From a virus (taxonomy: Duplodnaviria > Caudoviricetes): 24,109 nucleotides of DNA. The notes under the pieces were generated by a model that was not told the origin of the DNA, searched no databases, and saw nothing but the letters and a program-made list of their open reading frames with translations. The stretch lies in IMG/VR virus record IMGVR_UViG_3300023055_000116, positions 1-24,109 of that record; one strand, given 5' to 3'. The position numbers were made by a program, and so were the translations under genes. Numbering within the stretch: position 1 is the first letter of the stretch; each line of letters starts with the position of its first letter. This document shows positions 528-20,740 of this stretch, one piece after another.

Positions 528-1382
528 TTAACTTAATACTTTGTTCAAATCGATGGAATAACCTTCTCTTGTTAACTCCTTTGCAAGGCTGATTTTCCAA
601 CCGCCAGCCTTATCCAATTCGGTGTAAACTAACCCACTTAAATCTCCTGGAATTTCTATGTCGGATTTAACTAAGGCTGACACTTTATTGCGACCAAGTT
701 TGCCAATTAGATAACCGTGTTCAAACACGACATTTTGTCTTGCTCTAGGTCTCGAATCACCGCTACCCTCCAACCCGCCATAATCACAAGGTGTATAGAG
801 CACTATCCCATAGCCAACATTAGTGTGCTCTTCTATTTTTTCAATAATAGTTTTCCCGCTATTATTTTGCTCGTGTAAAATAATTGCTTTCAAACCAAGT
901 TGTTCAATGAATCTAGCAACTTCGGTTTTTGAGAGATCATCACGGCCATGAACGATAAATATGTTGTTATTGGTTTCTCTATTCTTATTTATAGATTCTT
1001 TGATTTTGCGTGACTCAGTTTTAGTAATTTCCTCACCAGCTTTTCTAAGAGTTTCTTTAGTTATATCAGTTGTGTAGTTGTCAGTTAAAATATCCGTTCT
1101 GTCAAGAAAAATAAAAACGTTTGCAGGTACTTTTGATTGCGCTATTGATTGCAATGCATTTGTTGTTCTATCAGCCTTTTTAATTTTTATCATTCTTACT
1201 AATGAGGCATCAATGTGACGTCCATCAATAAATATTTCCTCTTTCTTAAGGTAAGGATATATAATATATTTTTTTACATCATCGAAGTCTTCATTGTCCA
1301 AGTCATAGCAAGTTAAATAATTTCCTTTTTTATCTTTTTCTTCAGTTTCAATAATCGTGTTGTAATACATTGGTAACCTCAT
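528..1382 (-). CDS. TIR-like domain protein (PF10137 / Cap12-PycTIR type) with uncharacterised N-terminal domain; probable start ATG at 1370
   Basis: Motifs IFIVHGRD, IILHEQ, GKTIIEKIE, IVLYTPCD, RARQNVVFEHGY, IPGDLSG; GAGG RBS 6 nt before ATG 1370; AT-rich. Confidence 0.88.
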   Translation of the reverse strand: MRLPMYYNTIIETEEKDKKGNYLTCYDLDNEDFDDVKKYIIYPYLKKEEIFIDGRHIDASLVRMIKIKKADRTTNALQSIAQSKVPANVFIFLDRTDILTDNYTTDITKETLRKAGEEITKTESRKIKESINKNRETNNNIFIVHGRDDLSKTEVARFIEQLGLKAIILHEQNNSGKTIIEKIEEHTNVGYGIVLYTPCDYGGLEGSGDSRPRARQNVVFEHGYLIGKLGRNKVSALVKSDIEIPGDLSGLVYTELDKAGGWKISLAKELTREGYSIDLNKVLS

Positions 1383-5018: not shown

Positions 5019-5332
5019 GAGTCCAGGTTGATGATCGCTATGCAGTGCGCGCGCTGAAATCCAGTGAGCCGGGCAAGCCGCAACAATTGGTGTTAGAGAA
5101 ATTCAGCTGGCTTGAGATTGATGGCGTCCGTCAGCGCGTGCCGCAAACCATGGCCGTGTATGAGTCGACAGTGCTCTTGATGCGCGATCTGGCTGCTGAT
5201 GTCATTGGTCGCCGTGTTTTGCGTGGCAAGATGAATACAACCGCGGGCTTTGTGGCGGAAACCCGCCGCATCGCCGAGTTGGTAGAGGCAGCACTGCAAG
5301 AGCTAGCTGAACTTCAGGCCGCGCATGTCTGA
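5015..5332 (+). CDS. Hypothetical phage protein upstream of A
   Basis: TTG start overlaps the upstream stop and the 3' end overlaps the A start, implying translational coupling. Confidence 0.65.
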   Translation: MRVQVDDRYAVRALKSSEPGKPQQLVLEKFSWLEIDGVRQRVPQTMAVYESTVLLMRDLAADVIGRRVLRGKMNTTAGFVAETRRIAELVEAALQELAELQAAHV

Positions 5333-7334
5333 AAGCCTTCCTGATCTCCTTACTGGTGAATATCACGCCGTAAATCAGCAGCGGCGTGAAGTCTTCGGCA
5401 TGTCCGCTCCGGCGGATATGTCCCTTTCTGAGCGCCGCCTCTGGAATGTGAATCCAGAGGACCACAACTGGCGCAGCCAGTATCTGCAAGACATGCCGGA
5501 TTATCTGGCCGGTTACTTTGCCGATCGCTACAGCAAAATCCTCTCAGCAAATAATGGCCGCCGTCGGGCCAATGCGTTTCTGCGCCAGACTATCGGCCAG
5601 AACGTATTGCCACGCCTGCAGCTGGTTCGCAGCCGCTATCGTCTCGATGATGCCGCTCAATATGAACTGCCGTTCATCAAGCAGCTTGATCGGCTGCCCA
5701 CGCTTGACCGGCAGGACGTGCGCGATCTGGCTTATAAAGTCGCATCCTATCTTTCGCTTAGCCTGGCTGAGTTTGTCGATAAAACCTCTATGCCGCAGGA
5801 AGCAGACGAGCAGACAGTAACCTGCATTGCGTATCGCTACGTTGCTGAGCTGGCCGCATTGACCGGCACGCAGCCGCCATATTGGGCGGAATTCAAAGCC
5901 TCCAAAGGTGAGCTTACGCTGCGCAAGGCACAATCGGGTTTATTGCGCATGATGGCGCCAGAGTGGTGGCGTGGCCGTCTTAAGCAGATGCGCGATCTCC
6001 AGCGTGAGCACATGGCAATAGCAGTAGGGCAAGTTCAGAAATCTGCATCACCCTACGTTTCACGCGGCACGCTGGCGGAATGGGTTGAGCAGAAGAAACG
6101 CAACCGTGATTTCTTCAAGCGTTACGACCTGATGAACAAAGATACCGGTGACCGTATCGCGATGGATGAGATGGTCAACCGCAGCACCGCGAACCCGGCC
6201 ATGCGCCGCCGCGAGTTGATGACTAGAATGCGTGGCTTTGAAGACATCGCCAACGAAACTGGCTGCGTAGGGGACTTTTATACAATCACCGCGCCGTCGC
6301 GTTATCACTCCGTTTATAGCCAGGGCGGTTTCATTACCAAATGGAACGGTTCAAGCCCACGCGATACGCAGCGCTATTTATGCCGCGTTTGGGCGCGCAT
6401 TCGCGCCGCACTGTCACGCGAAGAGATCCATGTTTTCGGTTTCCGCGTGGTGGAGCCGCATCACGACGGCACGCCACACTGGCACATGCTGCTGTTTATG
6501 CTGCCGGAACATCGCGAGCGTGTGCAGCAGATCATGCGTGAGCATGCCAGCAAAGAAGACGCCGACGAACTGAGCACGCCGCAGGCGCGCAAAGCGCGTT
6601 TTCACGCTGAGCCTATCGATCCCACCAAAGGCAGCGCCACGGGTTACATCGCTAAATACATATCGAAGAACATCGACGGCTTCGCAATGGACGGCGAAAA
6701 GGACGATGAAACCGGCTCAAACATGCGTGATATGGCTAAGGCCGTATGCGCGTGGGCATCGCGCTGGCGCATCCGTCAGTTCCAGCAGATCGGCGGAGCG
6801 CCTGTAACAGTGTGGCGCGAGCTGCGCCGCCTCGGCGATACACGTCTACCTAACGAGAAAATGGATGCTGTGCTGGCGTCTGCTTCTGTTGCCAGCTGCT
6901 GGGCGTCTTACACGATGGCGCAGGGCGGCCCGCTGGTTGCGCGCGAAGATCTGGTGATCCGCCTCTGCTATGAAATTACAGAAATGGGCAACGAGTACGC
7001 CGAGGACGTGCAGCGCGTGCAGGGCATCTACTCGCCTCACTATCAAGATTCTGAAGTATTCACTCGTCTGGTGAAGTGGGAAGCCGTTAGCAAATTAGCC
7101 GACGCGTCAGCGGAGGCTGGTCCTTCTGGCGGCATCGCCGCCCCTTGGAGTTCTGTCAATAACTGTACGGGGCCGGAGCGCCGACGGTTAGAGCTGGAAC
7201 TAAAAGCCCGTGGCTTTGAGGGGCATGAAGAGGAAATTAGCCTCCTTTCCAGAGGATGCAGCCTAAATTCAGGTGCGCGAATGCGGCTTTTTTACCGAAA
7301 CGGTAGGCTCCAGGAACAAAAGATAACCATCTGA
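5325..7334 (+). CDS. A: Replication initiation endonuclease gpA (HUH, rolling circle)
   Basis: FYTITAPSRYH, EPHHDGTPHWHMLL (HUH), GYIAKYISKNIDG (two catalytic Tyr), WRIRQFQQIGG. Confidence 0.96.
   Translation: MSESLPDLLTGEYHAVNQQRREVFGMSAPADMSLSERRLWNVNPEDHNWRSQYLQDMPDYLAGYFADRYSKILSANNGRRRANAFLRQTIGQNVLPRLQLVRSRYRLDDAAQYELPFIKQLDRLPTLDRQDVRDLAYKVASYLSLSLAEFVDKTSMPQEADEQTVTCIAYRYVAELAALTGTQPPYWAEFKASKGELTLRKAQSGLLRMMAPEWWRGRLKQMRDLQREHMAIAVGQVQKSASPYVSRGTLAEWVEQKKRNRDFFKRYDLMNKDTGDRIAMDEMVNRSTANPAMRRRELMTRMRGFEDIANETGCVGDFYTITAPSRYHSVYSQGGFITKWNGSSPRDTQRYLCRVWARIRAALSREEIHVFGFRVVEPHHDGTPHWHMLLFMLPEHRERVQQIMREHASKEDADELSTPQARKARFHAEPIDPTKGSATGYIAKYISKNIDGFAMDGEKDDETGSNMRDMAKAVCAWASRWRIRQFQQIGGAPVTVWRELRRLGDTRLPNEKMDAVLASASVASCWASYTMAQGGPLVAREDLVIRLCYEITEMGNEYAEDVQRVQGIYSPHYQDSEVFTRLVKWEAVSKLADASAEAGPSGGIAAPWSSVNNCTGPERRRLELELKARGFEGHEEEISLLSRGCSLNSGARMRLFYRNGRLQEQKITI
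7139..7168 (+). other. Rolling-circle origin (ori) inside gene A
   Basis: CGCCCCTTGGAGTTCTGTCAATAACTGTAC closely resembles the P2 ori GCGCCTCGGAGTCCTGTCAATAACTGT. Confidence 0.8.
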
Positions 7335-7736: not shown

Positions 7737-7994
7737 ATGGCTAAAAATCCCGAAAAATTCCAGATCGTTTACCGAGGTGAGGTACTCACTTACTATAAGC
7801 CAGGTGAATGGGTGTTTTTCCAACGGCCGAAAGAATGCGGCGGGGGTTACTGGCTCGGTAAAACCTACGACTTCGTTTTCATACTTGAGATTCCATATCC
7901 CATTTCTTTACGGCAGGGCATGGATTTTCTGAATGAAGCAGAAGGAATTGGCCTCCACAAGTCAGCTTCTGTGGACGACTTCAAGCTGGAGTGA
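7737..7994 (+). CDS. Hypothetical protein (85 aa, aromatic-rich)
   Basis: ATG preceded by GAGG; followed by a terminator; no family recognised. Confidence 0.6.
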   Translation: MAKNPEKFQIVYRGEVLTYYKPGEWVFFQRPKECGGGYWLGKTYDFVFILEIPYPISLRQGMDFLNEAEGIGLHKSASVDDFKLE

Positions 7995-8053
7995 AGAGTG
8001 CATGACTATGCCGCATGAATTCGCATGATCCGAAAAGGATCGCTTTACCCTAG

Positions 8054-8082
8054 GCCCGCCAGTTCTGGCGGGCTTTCGTTTA
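8054..8082 (+). terminator. Rho-independent terminator
   Basis: GCCCGCCA-GTTC-TGGCGGGC followed by TTTCGTTTA. Confidence 0.75.
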
Positions 8083-8112: not shown

Positions 8113-8148
8113 AAAGCGGGCAGGCGTGGCGGGGGTACGAGCGCGCGC
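8113..8148 (+). other. cos packaging site (predicted 19-nt cohesive end 8123-8141)
   Basis: AAAGCGGGCA-GGCGTGGCGGGGGTACGAG-CGCGCGC aligns with P2 cos GGCGAGGCGGGGAAAGCAC-TGCGCGC; expected position between A and Q. Confidence 0.85.
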
Positions 8149-8309
8149 TAAGGGCCTCATATGAACATTTGATTAGTCATGAATAAGGGGCTAATTTGAA
8201 GTATATTGTTACACTTGAGCGAAATACGAAGTTATAGTATTGGCGAAAGAAGTGTGAATTTTCATAATTCTAATGCCAGAATGTTACTCTGACACAGCTG
8301 GAGACTTGG

Positions 8310-8780
8310 ATGTCTATCGAAGAAAAGTTTTTTCGAGAAATTGATTTAACTGATAGTTTTTTCAACTCATTACGAGCCGATTATGATGGTTTCGATAAAT
8401 GGTTTGCTTCAAAAGCTTCAAACAAAGCCTATGTATCGCATAATGATCTAGGTGAAATGGATGGTTTTCTGTATCTTAAAATTGAAGATGATCCAATCAC
8501 AGATACCATACCCGCTTTCAACGCAAAACCTAGAGTTAAGCTTGGAACATTTAAAATTAATGCTCACGGCACCAGATTAGGCGAAAGGTTTATAAGATTA
8601 GTTTTTAAATATGCAATGAATAATGGTTTAAAAGAAATCTATGTGACAATTTTCGATAAACATGTTGGTTTAATCAACCTTCTTGAAAATTATGGGTTTG
8701 AATTAAAAGCAAAAAAAATAGTTGCAACTATTAATGGTCATGAAGGAATTTATTTCAAGTCATTAGAGTGGAGAGATTAA
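8310..8780 (+). CDS. GNAT-family N-acetyltransferase
   Basis: GFLYLKIE, KLGTFKINAHGTRLGERFI (acetyl-CoA-binding motif A-like), IYVTIF...LLENYGF (motif B); GGAG RBS. Confidence 0.78.
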   Translation: MSIEEKFFREIDLTDSFFNSLRADYDGFDKWFASKASNKAYVSHNDLGEMDGFLYLKIEDDPITDTIPAFNAKPRVKLGTFKINAHGTRLGERFIRLVFKYAMNNGLKEIYVTIFDKHVGLINLLENYGFELKAKKIVATINGHEGIYFKSLEWRD

Positions 8781-9362
8781 ATGAGCAAACATAATTATCC
8801 GCTGGTTAAGCTTAATAATCGTAATTTCTTATTAAGTATTTACCCTACTTGGCATACAAGACTTTTTCCAGAATCTAAGTTGCACAATGAGGATGGAACC
8901 TTAATTAAAGATGTGGCGCATACTAATAGTATCGAGAAAGTATATCTTACAAAAATGGGCGGAACTGAAACTCTTCGTGAAGGAGATAACATACTCATAT
9001 ACAGAACTTCTGATGGTCAGGGGCCTGCACGCTATAGATCGGTTGCGACTTCTGTATGTGTAGTTATAGATGTGAAAAATATTCATTCTTTCGATAATTA
9101 TGATGATTTCAAAAAACACTGCGGGCCCTATACTGTATTTGATGAAGATGAGTTGAGACTTTTGTATAACAAGAAAAACTATCCTCAAATAATTAGGTTT
9201 ACTTATAATTTTCCTTTAGAGAAGCGAGTTATAAGGGATGACATAATGACCATCACAGGATATACTGATGCGAATTATTGGGGTTTTCTGGAATTAAGTG
9301 ATTCACATTTTAAGCGAATAGTCACAATGGGCGGGGTAAATGAAGGTTATATTATCGATTAA
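8781..9362 (+). CDS. PUA/EVE/ASCH-like domain protein, in frame with the upstream GNAT
   Basis: LLSIYPTWHTRLFPES, LREGDNILIYRT (PUA-like xxGDxxxxY strand), SVCVV; ATG directly follows the GNAT TAA and has GGAGAG upstream. Confidence 0.62.
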   Translation: MSKHNYPLVKLNNRNFLLSIYPTWHTRLFPESKLHNEDGTLIKDVAHTNSIEKVYLTKMGGTETLREGDNILIYRTSDGQGPARYRSVATSVCVVIDVKNIHSFDNYDDFKKHCGPYTVFDEDELRLLYNKKNYPQIIRFTYNFPLEKRVIRDDIMTITGYTDANYWGFLELSDSHFKRIVTMGGVNEGYIID

Positions 9363-9711
9363 GCCTGAATATGCTGAGCGTATTTTGTCTGGTGAAAAAA
9401 AATTCGAATTCAGGAAAAACATCTTTAAAAATAAAGATGTCGATACTGTTTTAATTTATGCCACTATGCCTGTTGGCAAAGTCATTGGTGAGTTTAAGGT
9501 TGGAGATATCCTTATGCACACACCCACTGAACTTTGGCACAAAACAAAAAGATATGCAGGCATCAGTCACAAATTTTTTGAAGATTATTTTCATTGTAGA
9601 GAAAAGGCTTTTGCAATTACTGTAAAAAACCCTAAGCGCTATCTCTCACCATTAGATCTTAATGACATATCTCCCGGTGCTAAGGCGCCGCAATCATTCC
9701 GATATGTTTAA
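9340..9711 (+). CDS. ASCH domain protein
   Basis: LSIKPEYAERILSGEKKFEFRK (GxKxxExR), VLIYATMPVGKVIGEF, APQSFRY; overlaps the upstream gene by 23 nt. Confidence 0.9.
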   Translation: MKVILSIKPEYAERILSGEKKFEFRKNIFKNKDVDTVLIYATMPVGKVIGEFKVGDILMHTPTELWHKTKRYAGISHKFFEDYFHCREKAFAITVKNPKRYLSPLDLNDISPGAKAPQSFRYV

Positions 9712-9729
9712 ACATTATTGAGCGCTGCT

Positions 9730-10269
9730 TTAACGTTTGCGCTCAATTTCATTAACGCATCTTGTGAATTCTTCTATTGTGGATGATGATAATATTTTTA
9801 TTGGTATGTTCAAATCTTGGCATATTGAAAAAGCATTCTCTCTCTCAAACTTAATTAATGCGTCTATATCATAGGATGGAGCAGCTCCATCTCTTTCTAT
9901 AATTCTTTTTATTATTGTCTCACTGTCATTTTCTAATAATATCACTCCATCAATGCATAATGACTGGAAAGTGCTTTTATCTAAACTCTTTATCCCTCCA
10001 TTTTTTTGAAGCAAGCAAAAGTGACCGTCAAGCAAAATTTTTTTATGTTTATTTAAAAGACTTTCAAGGGCCGAAATTAAAATCAATTGATTTCGATCTA
10101 AGTTTGAGGCCAATTTATCTAAAGGTATTTCTATATCACCATGGTTACGTATAAGTTGGCTAGCACTCTGGTAGTTCACATCATTTTCTTCGCTGTATTT
10201 TTTACATAAGTAGCCCTTCCCAACACCGTGCACACCAGCTACAAAAATTAGCATCTTACTCATTTCCAC
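9730..10269 (-). CDS. P-loop NMP-kinase-like protein (AAA_17 / archaeal adenylate-kinase-like); start may be ATG 10263 or 10254
   Basis: IFVAGVHGVGKG (P-loop), SASQLIR, ILLDGHF, IIKRIIERD (lid-like). Confidence 0.82.
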   Translation of the reverse strand: MEMSKMLIFVAGVHGVGKGYLCKKYSEENDVNYQSASQLIRNHGDIEIPLDKLASNLDRNQLILISALESLLNKHKKILLDGHFCLLQKNGGIKSLDKSTFQSLCIDGVILLENDSETIIKRIIERDGAAPSYDIDALIKFERENAFSICQDLNIPIKILSSSTIEEFTRCVNEIERKR

Positions 10270-10280
10270 TATAGAATTTA

Positions 10281-10289
10281 TGATAGAAT
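10281..10289 (+). promoter_or_regulatory. Possible extended -10 promoter for ASCH2 and the AbiC-like gene
   Basis: TG-A-TAGAAT about 26 nt upstream of ATG 10316. Confidence 0.4.
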
Positions 10290-10315
10290 TAGGGAGTTAA
10301 CATAAGGCGAAAAAA

Positions 10316-10699
10316 ATGAAAATTCAAGCTCTTTCAATAGTTAACCCCGCGGTGAATTTGATTCTTGATGGAATAAAGACTCATGAGATAAGGTCTTGGC
10401 TTCCCTCGGAGATTCCGTTGATGAATATTTTATTAGTTCAAAATAATCGTTATCTTGAGTTTGATAAGGATGAAGATGAGGGGGTCGGATTAGCTATTGT
10501 TGACTTTACTAGATTTTCAACTTGGACGGAAGTTGAACACTCTAAAGCCGGATCAATCGTCACATTAGGTCGAGATTGGAAGAAGGGGTATTATAAGTGG
10601 GAAATAAATAATATAAGAATTCTTAAGAATCCTATTTTTTGCAAGGCTAAAAAGGGGATTTATGAAATTGAAGTCGATTCAATAGCTTTAAAGGATTAA
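10316..10699 (+). CDS. Second ASCH domain protein (different subfamily)
   Basis: ALSIVNPAVNLILDGIKTHEIRSW (GxKxxExR), GLAIVDF, YKWEINNIRIL..PI..KAKKGIY. Confidence 0.85.
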   Translation: MKIQALSIVNPAVNLILDGIKTHEIRSWLPSEIPLMNILLVQNNRYLEFDKDEDEGVGLAIVDFTRFSTWTEVEHSKAGSIVTLGRDWKKGYYKWEINNIRILKNPIFCKAKKGIYEIEVDSIALKD

Positions 10700-10701
10700 A
10701 A

Positions 10702-11487
10702 ATGTCTAACATACTTTTTCTAAAAGCCAAAAGATTTGCTGTAATACCGGTTGTATCATTATTAGCACTGTTTCTTATCGGTGCAGCTTTGATTATGTAT
10801 TATAATTTTTTTGGTGATCGTCAAATAAGTAATTCAGTTGAAAAGTGGGGCCAATTTGGAGATTATATAGGAGGGGTGCTAAATCCGGGTTTAAGTTTCA
10901 TATCGATAATTTTAGTTTGCTACACGCTTCACGTTACTTCTCGTCAATCCTCAATGCAATCATTCGAATCTGTCCTATTTGAATTGCTCCGTTATCATAA
11001 AGAACATCTTGAAAATGTTAAGGTAAAGTATGGGGAAAATACATATTCAGGTGTGGATGCATTAAATTGGTGCATTACCGAGGTGAAGTTTAATTTTCGA
11101 AATTTAAGTGATGATGAGCAGCCGGCACCGAAAAGATTAACCTCCTCTATTGATCGTTTCTATGATAATGATGTTTTTTTCTCTAGTGCAGGACATTATT
11201 TTAGGAATTTATATCACATATTTAAACATATTGATGAGTCGTATTTTCTTTCAAAGAATGAAAGGGTTAAATATGCTAAGCTTGTTAGGGCGCAACTTTC
11301 CTCCATAGAGTCCGGGGCTATAATGCTCAATGGTCTTTCAACTATAGGCGGCAGATCCAGAGTTTACATTCACAAATATTCACTTTTGCAAGAATATACA
11401 TTGGGAAGTGATTTTAAAAGTGAGCTGGAGGCCTCAGGAGCGCTTGTCTTATATTCTGCTGAGGCATATGGAGATAAAGGAAATTAA
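10702..11487 (+). CDS. Membrane-anchored putative abortive infection protein (putAbiC, PF16872-like)
   Basis: N-terminal hydrophobic helix, WGQFGDYIGGVLNPGLSFISIILV (second TM), FESVLFELL, GHYFRNLYHIFKHID, KYAKLVRAQLS. Confidence 0.82.
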   Translation: MSNILFLKAKRFAVIPVVSLLALFLIGAALIMYYNFFGDRQISNSVEKWGQFGDYIGGVLNPGLSFISIILVCYTLHVTSRQSSMQSFESVLFELLRYHKEHLENVKVKYGENTYSGVDALNWCITEVKFNFRNLSDDEQPAPKRLTSSIDRFYDNDVFFSSAGHYFRNLYHIFKHIDESYFLSKNERVKYAKLVRAQLSSIESGAIMLNGLSTIGGRSRVYIHKYSLLQEYTLGSDFKSELEASGALVLYSAEAYGDKGN

Positions 11488-11492
11488 AAATT

Positions 11493-12524
11493 TTAACCTA
11501 ATTCATAAGGTGAGAATCTTATAATCTCGCAATCTAACAATTCATTAATTTCCTTCATTCTTTCTTGTAAGGGGATTAGTTCATTGCGTACGAATACTTT
11601 ACAGGCTTTCTCAGCGTCACCAAAACCGCCAACGTTGTTAGGTATTATCCCCATCATCTGAGGCGGCACCCGGTGCGCGGCCATCATGTCGTCACGGCTC
11701 ACGTTTTTGATATTAAGAAACTCATCCTTAGCTGCCACCTCTGACAGCGGGATGATCTGAATCCCGTCCTTCTTCCCGTTCGGCGAGTACATAAACAGGT
11801 TGCGGAAGTTGCCCGGCCCCTTGGCGCTTTTCATTGCCTGGCGGATGTTGTTCACGTCTTCCTGATTTTGCGCCGCGTCGGTCATATACATGATGAAACC
11901 GGCGTGACTGCCGTTCAGGTAGTATTTGCGGCGGAACAGCGTTGCCGACTCGTTTAGCAGGGTGGACGGGATCGCCGAAAGGTATTCCGGCAGGCCGTAA
12001 ACCTCCTGATTCAAATCCGGCTCCATCAGGTGAAACACGCTGCCTTTGGTGAACTCGTAGGGCTGGGTGTTCATGCCATATTGAACAAACCAGTAGGTGT
12101 CTAAATCGGTGCCGCGTCGGGTGAATTTTGCCAGTGCCGGCTCAAGCGCCAGCACGCCGCCGAGCCTGTTGGTGCGCTTTTCCAGATAGGCGTTGCCGAA
12201 CACCAGATAGTCCTGCACAAAACGGCTAAACGCCTGCTGGCTCAGCAGCGGGTGAGGGATGAAAGTGCTGGTCAGGATGTTGCGCTTCACGTTGATCGGC
12301 GAGCTGTGATGCACTGCGGCGCGGAACGTGCGCGCCAGCCCGTCAAAGCTCACCGGCGGTTCATACCACTTGTCCATCACCACGCATTCCACGTAGTCCA
12401 GTAGCTCGCGGCGGTCCAGCACCGGCACCGGGTCGCCAAAGGTGAACGCTTCTGCCGCCGGGCCGCCTGTCATCTGTTCTTGCTGCACGTGCTGCGTGCG
12501 CGTACGGTTCCTGCGTTTGCTCAT
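11493..12524 (-). CDS. Q: Portal protein gpQ
   Basis: AFTFGDPVPVLDRRE, WYEPPVSF, YGLPEYL, KGPGNFRNLF, AHRVPPQMMG. Confidence 0.97.
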   Translation of the reverse strand: MSKRRNRTRTQHVQQEQMTGGPAAEAFTFGDPVPVLDRRELLDYVECVVMDKWYEPPVSFDGLARTFRAAVHHSSPINVKRNILTSTFIPHPLLSQQAFSRFVQDYLVFGNAYLEKRTNRLGGVLALEPALAKFTRRGTDLDTYWFVQYGMNTQPYEFTKGSVFHLMEPDLNQEVYGLPEYLSAIPSTLLNESATLFRRKYYLNGSHAGFIMYMTDAAQNQEDVNNIRQAMKSAKGPGNFRNLFMYSPNGKKDGIQIIPLSEVAAKDEFLNIKNVSRDDMMAAHRVPPQMMGIIPNNVGGFGDAEKACKVFVRNELIPLQERMKEINELLDCEIIRFSPYELG

Positions 12525-19858: not shown

Positions 19859-20740
19859 TTAAAACATTCTTGTTAGATTTTTATTGGGGGTCAATAGTTT
19901 AGATTTAACTATCTTATCATCTGGTATTCCGAACATGTTTAATATGCACTTAACACTGCTTGGAAAAGGCTCAGATGCATAGGGTGAAATGAAAACTTTA
20001 TGAATGAGCTTGTTAATGTCAACATCTATCAATTCAGGTATAGGCTTGGCTTCATCTAAGCTTATATATTTTTTCTTGGGGGTAAAGTATAGCCTTGCTT
20101 CGTTTTCATGCTCGAAAGCAGTCCTTTTAAGTAAAGGCCCTATATTACCATTCACTATGCAATCTTCTTTTTTGAGTTTTGGAGAGTCATAGTCGATGTA
20201 TTTTATCTCACTAAAGAAAATCGCGCTTGCTCTTGAATCAATCACTGATTCGACAAGCGATTCGGCTGTAGTCTGAATCGCTATTCCTTTATGCGAATCA
20301 GAATATAATTTCCACATAGCTTCGGATTCAAAATCATTTTGATGCCAGCAGTTAACAACGATGCAGCTCATAAGATTAAAATATACCTTTTCCATTCTTG
20401 CTGCATGGGATTCAGCATCAGCTCTTATCTTGGCAAACTCTATTGCTGCCTGGGCTTTTAATTCATCTGATAAAGGGCTATGTGATAAGGCATGCGATTT
20501 AGCTTTATCAATATTTTCTAATAACATTCCTTGAGTGTCATTGATAACTCCCGCAATTGCATCAAGAGCCGCTTTAGGTAAAAGCCCTTCAAATGGATCA
20601 CTAGATGCGTAGAATTTAACCGGAGTGAAGAATAGTTTTTTAGTATCAAGTAGGTTTATCAAACGATCTAATGTCATATAACGCCATAGTTTCTGACTTT
20701 TATCTATATTAGATGTGACATTTTCAGCCTTCATGCTCAT
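19859..20740 (-). CDS. DUF2971-like cargo protein
   Basis: LWRYM, DPFEG, NCWHQNDFESEAMWKLYS, GIAIQT, IKYIDY, KRTAFEHENEARL; AT-rich, antisense to the tail operon. Confidence 0.78.
   Translation of the reverse strand: MSMKAENVTSNIDKSQKLWRYMTLDRLINLLDTKKLFFTPVKFYASSDPFEGLLPKAALDAIAGVINDTQGMLLENIDKAKSHALSHSPLSDELKAQAAIEFAKIRADAESHAARMEKVYFNLMSCIVVNCWHQNDFESEAMWKLYSDSHKGIAIQTTAESLVESVIDSRASAIFFSEIKYIDYDSPKLKKEDCIVNGNIGPLLKRTAFEHENEARLYFTPKKKYISLDEAKPIPELIDVDINKLIHKVFISPYASEPFPSSVKCILNMFGIPDDKIVKSKLLTPNKNLTRMF

Follow-up and report, generated by a model that had tools for sequence, protein, structure and literature searches.

The subject of this study is a cassette of six genes at positions 8310-11487 of a 24,109-nt stretch of DNA (the window), which comprises positions 1 to 24,109 of the IMG/VR virus record IMGVR_UViG_3300023055_000116 (Caudoviricetes) and belongs to a P2-like prophage. 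We find that the cassette is real and conserved, that it is of a kind already catalogued but unnamed, and that it extends a core of two functions which is labelled as toxin and antitoxin in its homologues. A preliminary description, made from the letters of this DNA alone, had taken the six genes for a candidate uncharacterised anti-phage system in which a GNAT acetyltransferase marks a nucleic-acid or nucleotide target, PUA-fold proteins read or process the mark, a kinase handles the nucleotide and a membrane protein executes abortive infection.

Organization of the cassette

The six AT-rich open reading frames (ORFs) are located between the gpA and portal genes of the prophage, and their positions, spacing and composition are as the preliminary description gave them. 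The intergenic gaps are, in order, 0, -23, 18, 46 and 2 nt, and the stop of the portal gene lies 5 nt beyond the end of the cassette. The GC content of the cassette is 0.342 as compared to 0.564 in gpA and 0.596 from the portal gene onward. The domain calls made earlier (GNAT, PUA-like, ASCH, nucleoside-monophosphate kinase, ASCH and AbiC-like) are borne out by Pfam, profile and fold searches, while in NCBIfam none of the six proteins is named above cut-off. The features of the cassette are as follows, where PDC-M11A and PDC-M11B denote PADLOC profiles and GevT and GevA are labels from a GenBank record, both discussed below.

8310..8780, plus strand: GNAT acetyltransferase, 156 amino acids (aa); N-terminal half of PDC-M11A/GevT, predicted catalytic subunit of the toxin
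8781..9362, plus strand: EVE/PUA-fold protein, 193 aa; C-terminal half of PDC-M11A/GevT, predicted modified-base reader
9340..9711, plus strand: ASCH1, 123 aa, with GxKxxExR (K20, E23, R25); PDC-M11B/GevA homologue, predicted antitoxin
9730..10254, minus strand: AAA_17 protein resembling nucleoside-monophosphate kinases; 174 aa if started at the ATG at 10254, 179 aa if started at the GTG at 10269
10280..10289, plus strand: predicted extended -10 element TGnTARAAT for ASCH2-putAbiC, possibly bidirectional with the kinase
10316..10699, plus strand: ASCH2, 127 aa, EOLA1/TRIP4-like (S7, K21, E24, R26), predicted deacetylase
10702..11487, plus strand: putAbiC (PF16872), 261 aa, predicted abortive-infection protein with two predicted membrane helices and a helical cytoplasmic domain

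The kinase ORF spans 9730-10269 on the minus strand, and alignment places the start of the protein at the ATG at 10254. The gene stands tail-to-tail with ASCH1 across the 18-nt gap and head-to-head with ASCH2 across the 46-nt gap, which becomes 61 nt with the aligned start. The same orientation is seen in the window and in all 26 split loci (those in which GNAT and EVE are separate genes) that have the kinase; the genes do not all lie on one strand, and the cassette is therefore not one operon. At least two transcription units, and probably three, are needed.

All six genes are under purifying selection. The median ratios of non-synonymous to synonymous substitution rates (dN/dS), taken from 14-23 unsaturated pairs per gene, are 0.13 for GNAT, 0.04 for EVE, 0.06 for ASCH1, 0.16 for the kinase, 0.18 for ASCH2 and 0.09 for putAbiC.

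Conservation of the cassette among related loci

The preliminary description had proposed a survey of gene neighbourhoods. The present one covered 197 sequences (with repeats), 154 of which contain the EVE half, and yielded 57 distinct EVE sequences: 25 fused to GNAT, 31 split and 1 cut by a contig end. The split loci comprise 18 six-gene forms (the window included; two are cut at one end), 8 five-gene forms without putAbiC, 3 four-gene forms in which putAbiC follows straight after ASCH1 with no kinase or ASCH2, and 2 loci too short to classify. Of the 29 distinct split loci with enough flanking DNA, 18 thus share all six genes, arranged and oriented alike. One identical contig aside, the six-gene loci have 60-69% DNA identity to the window, and the gene order is kept across phage backbones whose gpA is only 33-45% identical to that of the window. 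Pseudogenes or random accretion are ruled out by this conserved order together with the dN/dS values.

The kinase and ASCH2 are both present in 26 of the 29 split loci and both absent from the other 3, and therefore come and go together. Among the fused loci, 3 have a kinase on the same strand and none has ASCH2 or putAbiC; downstream DNA is shorter than 1.5 kb in 7 of the 25, and of the 18 with 1.5 kb or more, 16 have the two-gene core by itself. The core can therefore persist without a membrane protein. In a separate sample of 401 genomes from one order, PDC-M11A was detected in 15; none of 14 regions taken from this sample carries ASCH2 or putAbiC, and 5 contain the kinase in other gene arrangements. 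Across 5426 complete E. coli genomes, the whole cassette is spanned by a match in 8, and a further 9 match the core only.

Side by side with these forms, several neighbours were observed. In one four-gene locus a 316-aa HNH gene (L038:5823-6773, minus strand; HNH_2 E 2e-12) faces putAbiC, and a similar gene is found in L037 and L171. A KwaB-like (Kiwa) gene at L215:1878-2849 and a SLATT_5 gene at L217:5830-6456 adjoin fused GNAT-EVE + ASCH genes, which is consistent with defence clusters. DNA nearly identical to positions 8200-11500 of the window occurs in 21 soil metatranscriptome runs of 2018-2019, possibly from a shared source or by carry-over of DNA. Four runs which we examined cover 22-28 of 30 prophage bins; carry-over of DNA being possible, we make no claim of expression. 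Run X5 has a hole at 10260-10316, the spacer between the kinase and ASCH2, while runs X1 and X10 cover that spacer.

Relation to catalogued systems

Rousset et al. 2022 describe the P2 A-Q hotspot as holding anti-phage systems. The cassette, between gpA (5325-7334) and gpQ, the portal gene (11493-12524), lies in this hotspot, as had been stated earlier. Table S5B of the same study already lists the cassette as System 86, unnamed, with 42 E. coli loci; its protein list contains putAbiC, AAA_17, GNAT, an EVE-like hypothetical protein and two ASCH proteins. The accessions given for System 86 in Table S5A are those of the E. coli locus L053 of our survey, which has the same gene order and orientation as the window; all six proteins have orthologues there, with 69, 74, 74, 46, 50 and 54% identity, and sequence divergence is the only difference. 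In the table, System 86 is a row without name, gene order or mechanism. The main text of Rousset et al. has no match for GNAT, ASCH, acetyltransferase or AbiC, and within the supplementary files examined putAbiC appears in no other file and no test of System 86 was seen. The six-gene cassette is therefore already catalogued, and the novelty claimed for it in the preliminary description has to be given up.

The six-gene version is thus catalogued without a name; its core is the PADLOC candidate PDC-M11, with homologues labelled GevT and GevA. GNAT matches positions 11-160 of 357 of PDC-M11A (E 6e-57), EVE matches positions 166-357 of 357 (E 6e-68) and ASCH1 matches PDC-M11B (E 4e-50), so that PDC-M11A and PDC-M11B are adjacent, with M11A in two halves, as judged from the profiles. 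In the literature consulted, PDC-M11 receives a passing mention as a candidate; the main text of DefensePredictor has no match for GNAT, ASCH, PUA, EVE or AbiC.

The labels come from GenBank record PV340567.1 (Escherichia phage PhiR47_2), in which a fused homologue is labelled 'GevT toxin' and its ASCH neighbour 'GevA antitoxin'. The homology is full-length, the gene order and the overlap of the EVE and ASCH genes are the same, and the identities are 42% for GNAT (to GevT residues 13-156), 46% for EVE and 52% for ASCH1. In contrast to the window, where the toxin is split in two, GevT is one chain of 357 aa in a lambdoid phage, and no kinase, ASCH2 or putAbiC homologue is found nearby.

Bell, Wolf & Koonin 2020 (PMC7641849), in the sections used here, present GNAT-EVE with ASCH, often accompanied by AAA_17, as common in proteobacterial prophages and uncharacterised. 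This (PIN-)GNAT-EVE + ASCH + AAA_17 set corresponds to PDC-M11A/B and shares with the window the same four domains and the location in a prophage: an EVE/PUA fold (fold Z 9-11) is accompanied by ASCH and AAA_17 (Pfam). The window differs from the operons presented there in having GNAT and EVE in two genes instead of one chain, an inverted kinase, an additional EOLA1-like ASCH2 and putAbiC, and no PIN domain.

The GNAT, EVE and ASCH1 core

Genes 1 and 2 correspond to the two halves of what is usually encoded as a single chain. In the window the GNAT gene ends in TAA and the EVE gene begins with ATG, and EVE is out of frame with GNAT in 10 of the 31 split loci; these are therefore two genes, and read-through of the GNAT stop is ruled out. 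Translation of EVE is predicted to be coupled to that of GNAT. The Pfam match of GNAT is weak (E 0.003), while its profile matches solved GNATs at E 2e-5.

For the EVE half, sequence searches of Pfam and PDB gave no match. Its model (predicted local distance difference test, pLDDT, 72) has its best fold match in ZmASCH (Z 10.8, root-mean-square deviation (rmsd) 3.7, 138 residues aligned) and also matches the EVE structure 2gbs (Z 10.6, rmsd 3.2, 126 aligned) and THYN1 (Z 9.2). These matches are EVE/ASCH/YTH folds and include the modified-DNA readers THYN1, McrB and VcaM4I. An Atlas search gave an EVE lead for the second ORF at 13% of one cluster.

ASCH1 is recognised as ASCH by Pfam (E 9e-8), its closest solved structure is ZmASCH (E 8e-18), and K20, E23 and R25 are invariant in 33 of 33 aligned sequences. 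Both ASCH proteins of the window share the GxKxxExR motif, with its K, E and R, with ZmASCH and with the ASCH amidohydrolases of N4-acetylcytidine (ac4C), namely YqfB, EOLA1 and TthASCH. In the portions of a 2026 preprint consulted, all 19 ASCH proteins tested are reported to remove ac4C from tRNA in vitro, the K and E being required in GKER-type ASCH proteins; TRIP4 is reported there to be inactive on free ac4C, so the motif is no guarantee of activity. By these residues ASCH1 is likely a deacetylase antitoxin. The known ASCH amidohydrolases and ZmASCH differ in that they act on housekeeping ac4C or RNA, and in the sections of the sources consulted none is described as an antitoxin.

The kinase and ASCH2

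The kinase matches AAA_17 of Pfam (E 2e-15) and the structures of adenylate and UMP/CMP kinases (E 1e-6 to 2e-5), and its P-loop GVHGVGK and the sequence LDGHF are conserved. It is found next to GNAT-EVE + ASCH in five or more different gene orders and is frameshifted in 2 of the 18 six-gene loci. In one locus with a fused GNAT-EVE (L222:3877-5971) both the kinase and an ASCH gene are inverted relative to it, an inversion different from that of the window.

ASCH2 gives a Pfam ASCH match of E 4e-4 and has EOLA1 as its best solved match, with S7, K21, E24 and R26 at the same residue numbers; the K/E/R motif is invariant in 12 of 12 sequences. Duplication of ASCH1 is ruled out as its origin: the two profiles align over 25 columns only and have different closest structures. 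A stand-alone ASCH2 homologue, 42% identical, was also seen among tail/lysis-like genes of an unrelated phage (L107:4899-5345).

The kinase and ASCH2 are likely made from a divergent promoter of their own, as predicted from the spacer between them. All 18 six-gene spacers contain an extended -10 motif (TGnTARAAT), which is absent from all 8 five-gene spacers and arises in 44 of 5200 shuffled segments. The five-gene spacers carry AGTATCAT in 7 of 8 cases, and in 7 of 8 this motif fits the 18-bp geometry and symmetry of bidirectional promoters, as given in the part of Warman et al. consulted. Of the 18 six-gene spacers, 11 show A2 and T6 in the hexamer of the bottom strand, but support for a bidirectional promoter is weak here because A2 is forced by the top-strand motif. 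A generic promoter scan was uninformative, with 17 sites against 14.3 +/- 4.4 expected by chance.

Among 12 fused loci with a kinase that were examined, 4 have a second, non-orthologous PUA gene (DUF3850) next to the kinase (L003:7438-7674, L021:7442-7720, L079:6442-6720 and L217:5406-5666; Pfam-confirmed for 2 loci and called by motif for 2). It is a possible stand-in for ASCH2. Since 3 of these 4 loci form one clade, the pairing of DUF3850 and kinase may be taken as a hint only.

The membrane protein putAbiC

putAbiC is assigned by Pfam (E 3e-18), has hydrophobic stretches near residues 4-38 and 55-76, and is modelled as nearly all helix (pLDDT 93). Y166, R168, Q198, S200 and E203 of the cytoplasmic domain are invariant. 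It has no solved homologue by sequence search, and the fold search gave generic helical matches to residues 1-90 only (best Z 8.2, rmsd 3.9, 89 aligned), being dominated by the N-terminal helices so that residues 88-261 were barely probed. A HEPN-like Rx4-6H motif was considered and is not supported, as it occurs in only 54 of 107 members.

The family resembles lactococcal AbiC and AbiP in being membrane-anchored, and of its 107 members 95 match the PADLOC AbiP profile and 73 the AbiC profile. In contrast, the putAbiC of the window matches these profiles only in part: its AbiC match covers some 70 residues (E 3e-5), and its AbiP match is weak (E 0.0035). With 1518 homologues matched, the family is a large one, and a literature search found nothing naming putAbiC or PF16872. 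Homologues without the other cassette genes occur in 9 distant viral loci and, in the tables of Rousset et al. 2022 consulted, in System 157.

The preliminary description had cast this protein as the executioner of the system, a role which fits poorly with its distribution. putAbiC is missing from 8 of the 29 split loci and from all 25 fused loci (7 of them with short flanks), it occurs without the other genes, and the core is itself labelled as toxin plus antitoxin. We therefore consider putAbiC likely to be a separate abortive-infection layer rather than the executioner.

History of the cassette

A tree of GNAT + EVE + ASCH1 was built from 49 of the 57 loci (8 were dropped), and a bootstrap tree from 29 of those 49. 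The split forms fall in one clade (FastTree 1.0; ultrafast bootstrap, UFBoot, 81), in which the putAbiC-bearing loci form one nested clade (FastTree 0.98; UFBoot 93) that excludes the five-gene forms. Fused proteins of the SopEPhi type are placed among the latter (UFBoot 86 and 68). On the simplest reading of this tree, the split of GNAT and EVE, the inverted kinase and ASCH2 would have come first, and putAbiC was likely gained once and late. The kinase and ASCH2 would have been lost together in the four-gene lineage, and perhaps a second time in the re-fused one.

Two fused GNAT-EVE + ASCH pairs stand inside the split clade, at L051:4458-5922 and L052:3887-5297 (SopEPhi and an E. coli P2-like prophage). 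With moderate support, their position suggests re-fusion together with loss of the kinase and ASCH2. The relatives of the window form a natural deletion series of 2, 3, 4, 5 and 6 genes.

Proposed mechanism

A role of the cassette in defence against other phages is probable. GNAT/EVE and ASCH1 likely act as a toxin-antitoxin pair that protects the lysogen. In the mechanism which we propose, GNAT and EVE, made as separate chains, would come together again and acetylate a nucleic acid, most likely tRNA; a modified base would allow EVE to select or gate this target. A tRNA or other nucleic-acid target of the GNAT was likewise suggested in the sections of Bell et al. used here. In the lysogen ASCH1 would keep GNAT/EVE harmless, likely by using its K20/E23 dyad to take off the N-acetyl mark. 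When another phage infects, ASCH1 would be depleted or modified nucleic acid presented, and translation would stop. The kinase and ASCH2 would deacetylate and re-phosphorylate acetylated nucleotide by-products as an optional clean-up arm; such an arm is likely by analogy to EOLA1, which the portion of a salvage preprint consulted reports to deacetylate free ac4C. putAbiC would be the later-gained membrane abortive-infection protein, a second layer which the core does not need. The chain in its entirety, from the toxin-antitoxin core through the clean-up arm to the putAbiC layer, is put forward tentatively. Of the earlier writer/reader model it retains a GNAT writer, PUA-fold proteins as readers or erasers and a likely role in defence, and drops the membrane executioner.

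Several observations weigh against this explanation. All searches were seeded from the window's own genes, so that the counts cannot be read as population frequencies; the 18 six-gene loci belong to a single lineage of one origin, and bootstrap support is moderate (split clade 81, six-gene clade 84). The GevT and GevA labels are the depositor's, in one GenBank record, and no paper was found for the names. According to the 2026 preprint, in the portions consulted, ZmASCH is inactive on free ac4C and leaves tRNA ac4C in cells at its level, while an earlier paper had originally described this protein as a single-strand RNase; because of this, ASCH1 may neutralise its partner by binding or cleavage instead. 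The activity of EOLA1 is disputed in the sources consulted, and ASCH2 matches it weakly (E 0.005). Prophages often carry DUF3850/ASCH genes, so the pairing of these with the kinase may be chance. Finally, all 21 loci of the putAbiC clade have retained the gene, even those without the kinase and ASCH2, and its position directly after ASCH1 in the 3 four-gene loci fits a real functional link.

This retention of putAbiC, its dN/dS of 0.09 and its place next to ASCH1 where the kinase and ASCH2 are missing would also be expected of an integrated cascade as in the preliminary description, in which GNAT/EVE on infection makes an acetylated nucleotide or mark, the level of this product is set by the ASCH proteins and the kinase, and putAbiC, on sensing it, kills the cell; the invariant Y166, R168, Q198, S200 and E203 could form the ligand site. 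However, putAbiC is absent from the 8 five-gene and all 25 fused loci (7 of them with short flanks) and its homologues occur without the other genes. ASCH2-putAbiC has a separate promoter motif, and the two-gene core is labelled toxin and antitoxin by itself. We consider such a cascade unlikely.

A different purpose would be served if GNAT-EVE acetylated a base of the prophage DNA as a shield against host restriction, with the ASCH proteins reading or reversing the mark, the kinase recycling a modified deoxynucleoside monophosphate and putAbiC as an unrelated passenger. Among the sections of Bell et al. consulted are a report of DNA-base acetylation proposed by Iyer et al. and the authors' own suggestion that GNAT-EVE may shield phages from host restriction. 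The modified-DNA readers among the EVE fold matches and a dedicated nucleoside-monophosphate kinase as partner fit such a scheme. The toxin and antitoxin labels speak against it, as does the carriage of the pair by many phages without the kinase. Moreover, the pair lies directly after cI in the lambdoid phage and after cI in an E. coli P2-like prophage, positions which would suggest expression in the lysogen and not in lytic growth. Self-protection of this kind therefore appears rather improbable.

GNAT toxin-antitoxin pairs often stabilise mobile elements, and the core could do no more than stabilise the prophage as a plain addiction module without anti-phage role, the other three genes being hitch-hikers in the hotspot. 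The frameshifted kinases, the broken GNAT in L037 and L105 and the occurrence of homologues on plasmids agree with this. Against it stand the purifying selection on all six genes, the gene order maintained across divergent backbones, the finding of the kinase only beside the GNAT-EVE core ((PIN-)GNAT-EVE genes adjoin it in 7 of 7 matches in phage and plasmid records) and the listing of the core as a defence candidate in PADLOC; we hold this reading, too, to be rather improbable. A circuit in which infection makes the split GNAT/EVE write an N-acetylated nucleotide, two ASCH deacetylases and the kinase set its level as enzymatic antitoxin and off-switch, and a putAbiC recruited in this lineage reads it as a new second messenger, seems very improbable.

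Other features of the prophage

Around the cassette, the following features of the window were noted.

5325-7334: Phage_GPA gene (gpA), from Pfam/phage profile search
11493-12524: portal gene, from phage profile search
8123-8141, plus strand: cos-like site upstream of the cassette, read from sequence

We take the cos-like site to resemble that of P2/186-type phages and the repressor region of the prophage to be presumably of 186 type. An 85-aa ORF of unknown function (7737-7994, plus strand; phrog_2100, E 8e-33) is followed by a terminator-like hairpin (8052-8075) before the cos-like site; both the ORF and the hairpin are found in only some of the related loci. A TIR-domain gene (528-1382, minus strand), just past the integrase, matches the CAP12/Pycsar TIR family of Pfam (E 2e-36) and PADLOC PDC-S35 (E 1e-106) and is a second defence-candidate cargo of the same prophage. 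A third is an AT-rich DUF2971 gene (19859-20740, minus strand; PADLOC PDC-S31, E 3e-26) inserted among the tail genes. At about 335-390, on the minus strand, the 3' portion of a tRNA (anticodon CAT) was recognised by eye and is the likely attachment site.

Significance

The existence of the cassette is not new in itself; what is added here is that it can be tested. Its core is tied to a labelled toxin-antitoxin pair, and both of its ASCH proteins carry the residues recently shown to deacetylate tRNA cytidine. This suggests a logic of writer and eraser, in which the antitoxin would enzymatically erase the mark made by the GNAT toxin. It resembles that of DarTG, here with acetyl groups. The natural versions of two, three, four, five and six genes can tell what is contributed by the kinase, by ASCH2 and by putAbiC, whose family is uncharacterised. 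Should the eraser model be true, it would give a function to a widespread family which Bell et al. 2020, in the sections used here, called uncharacterised.

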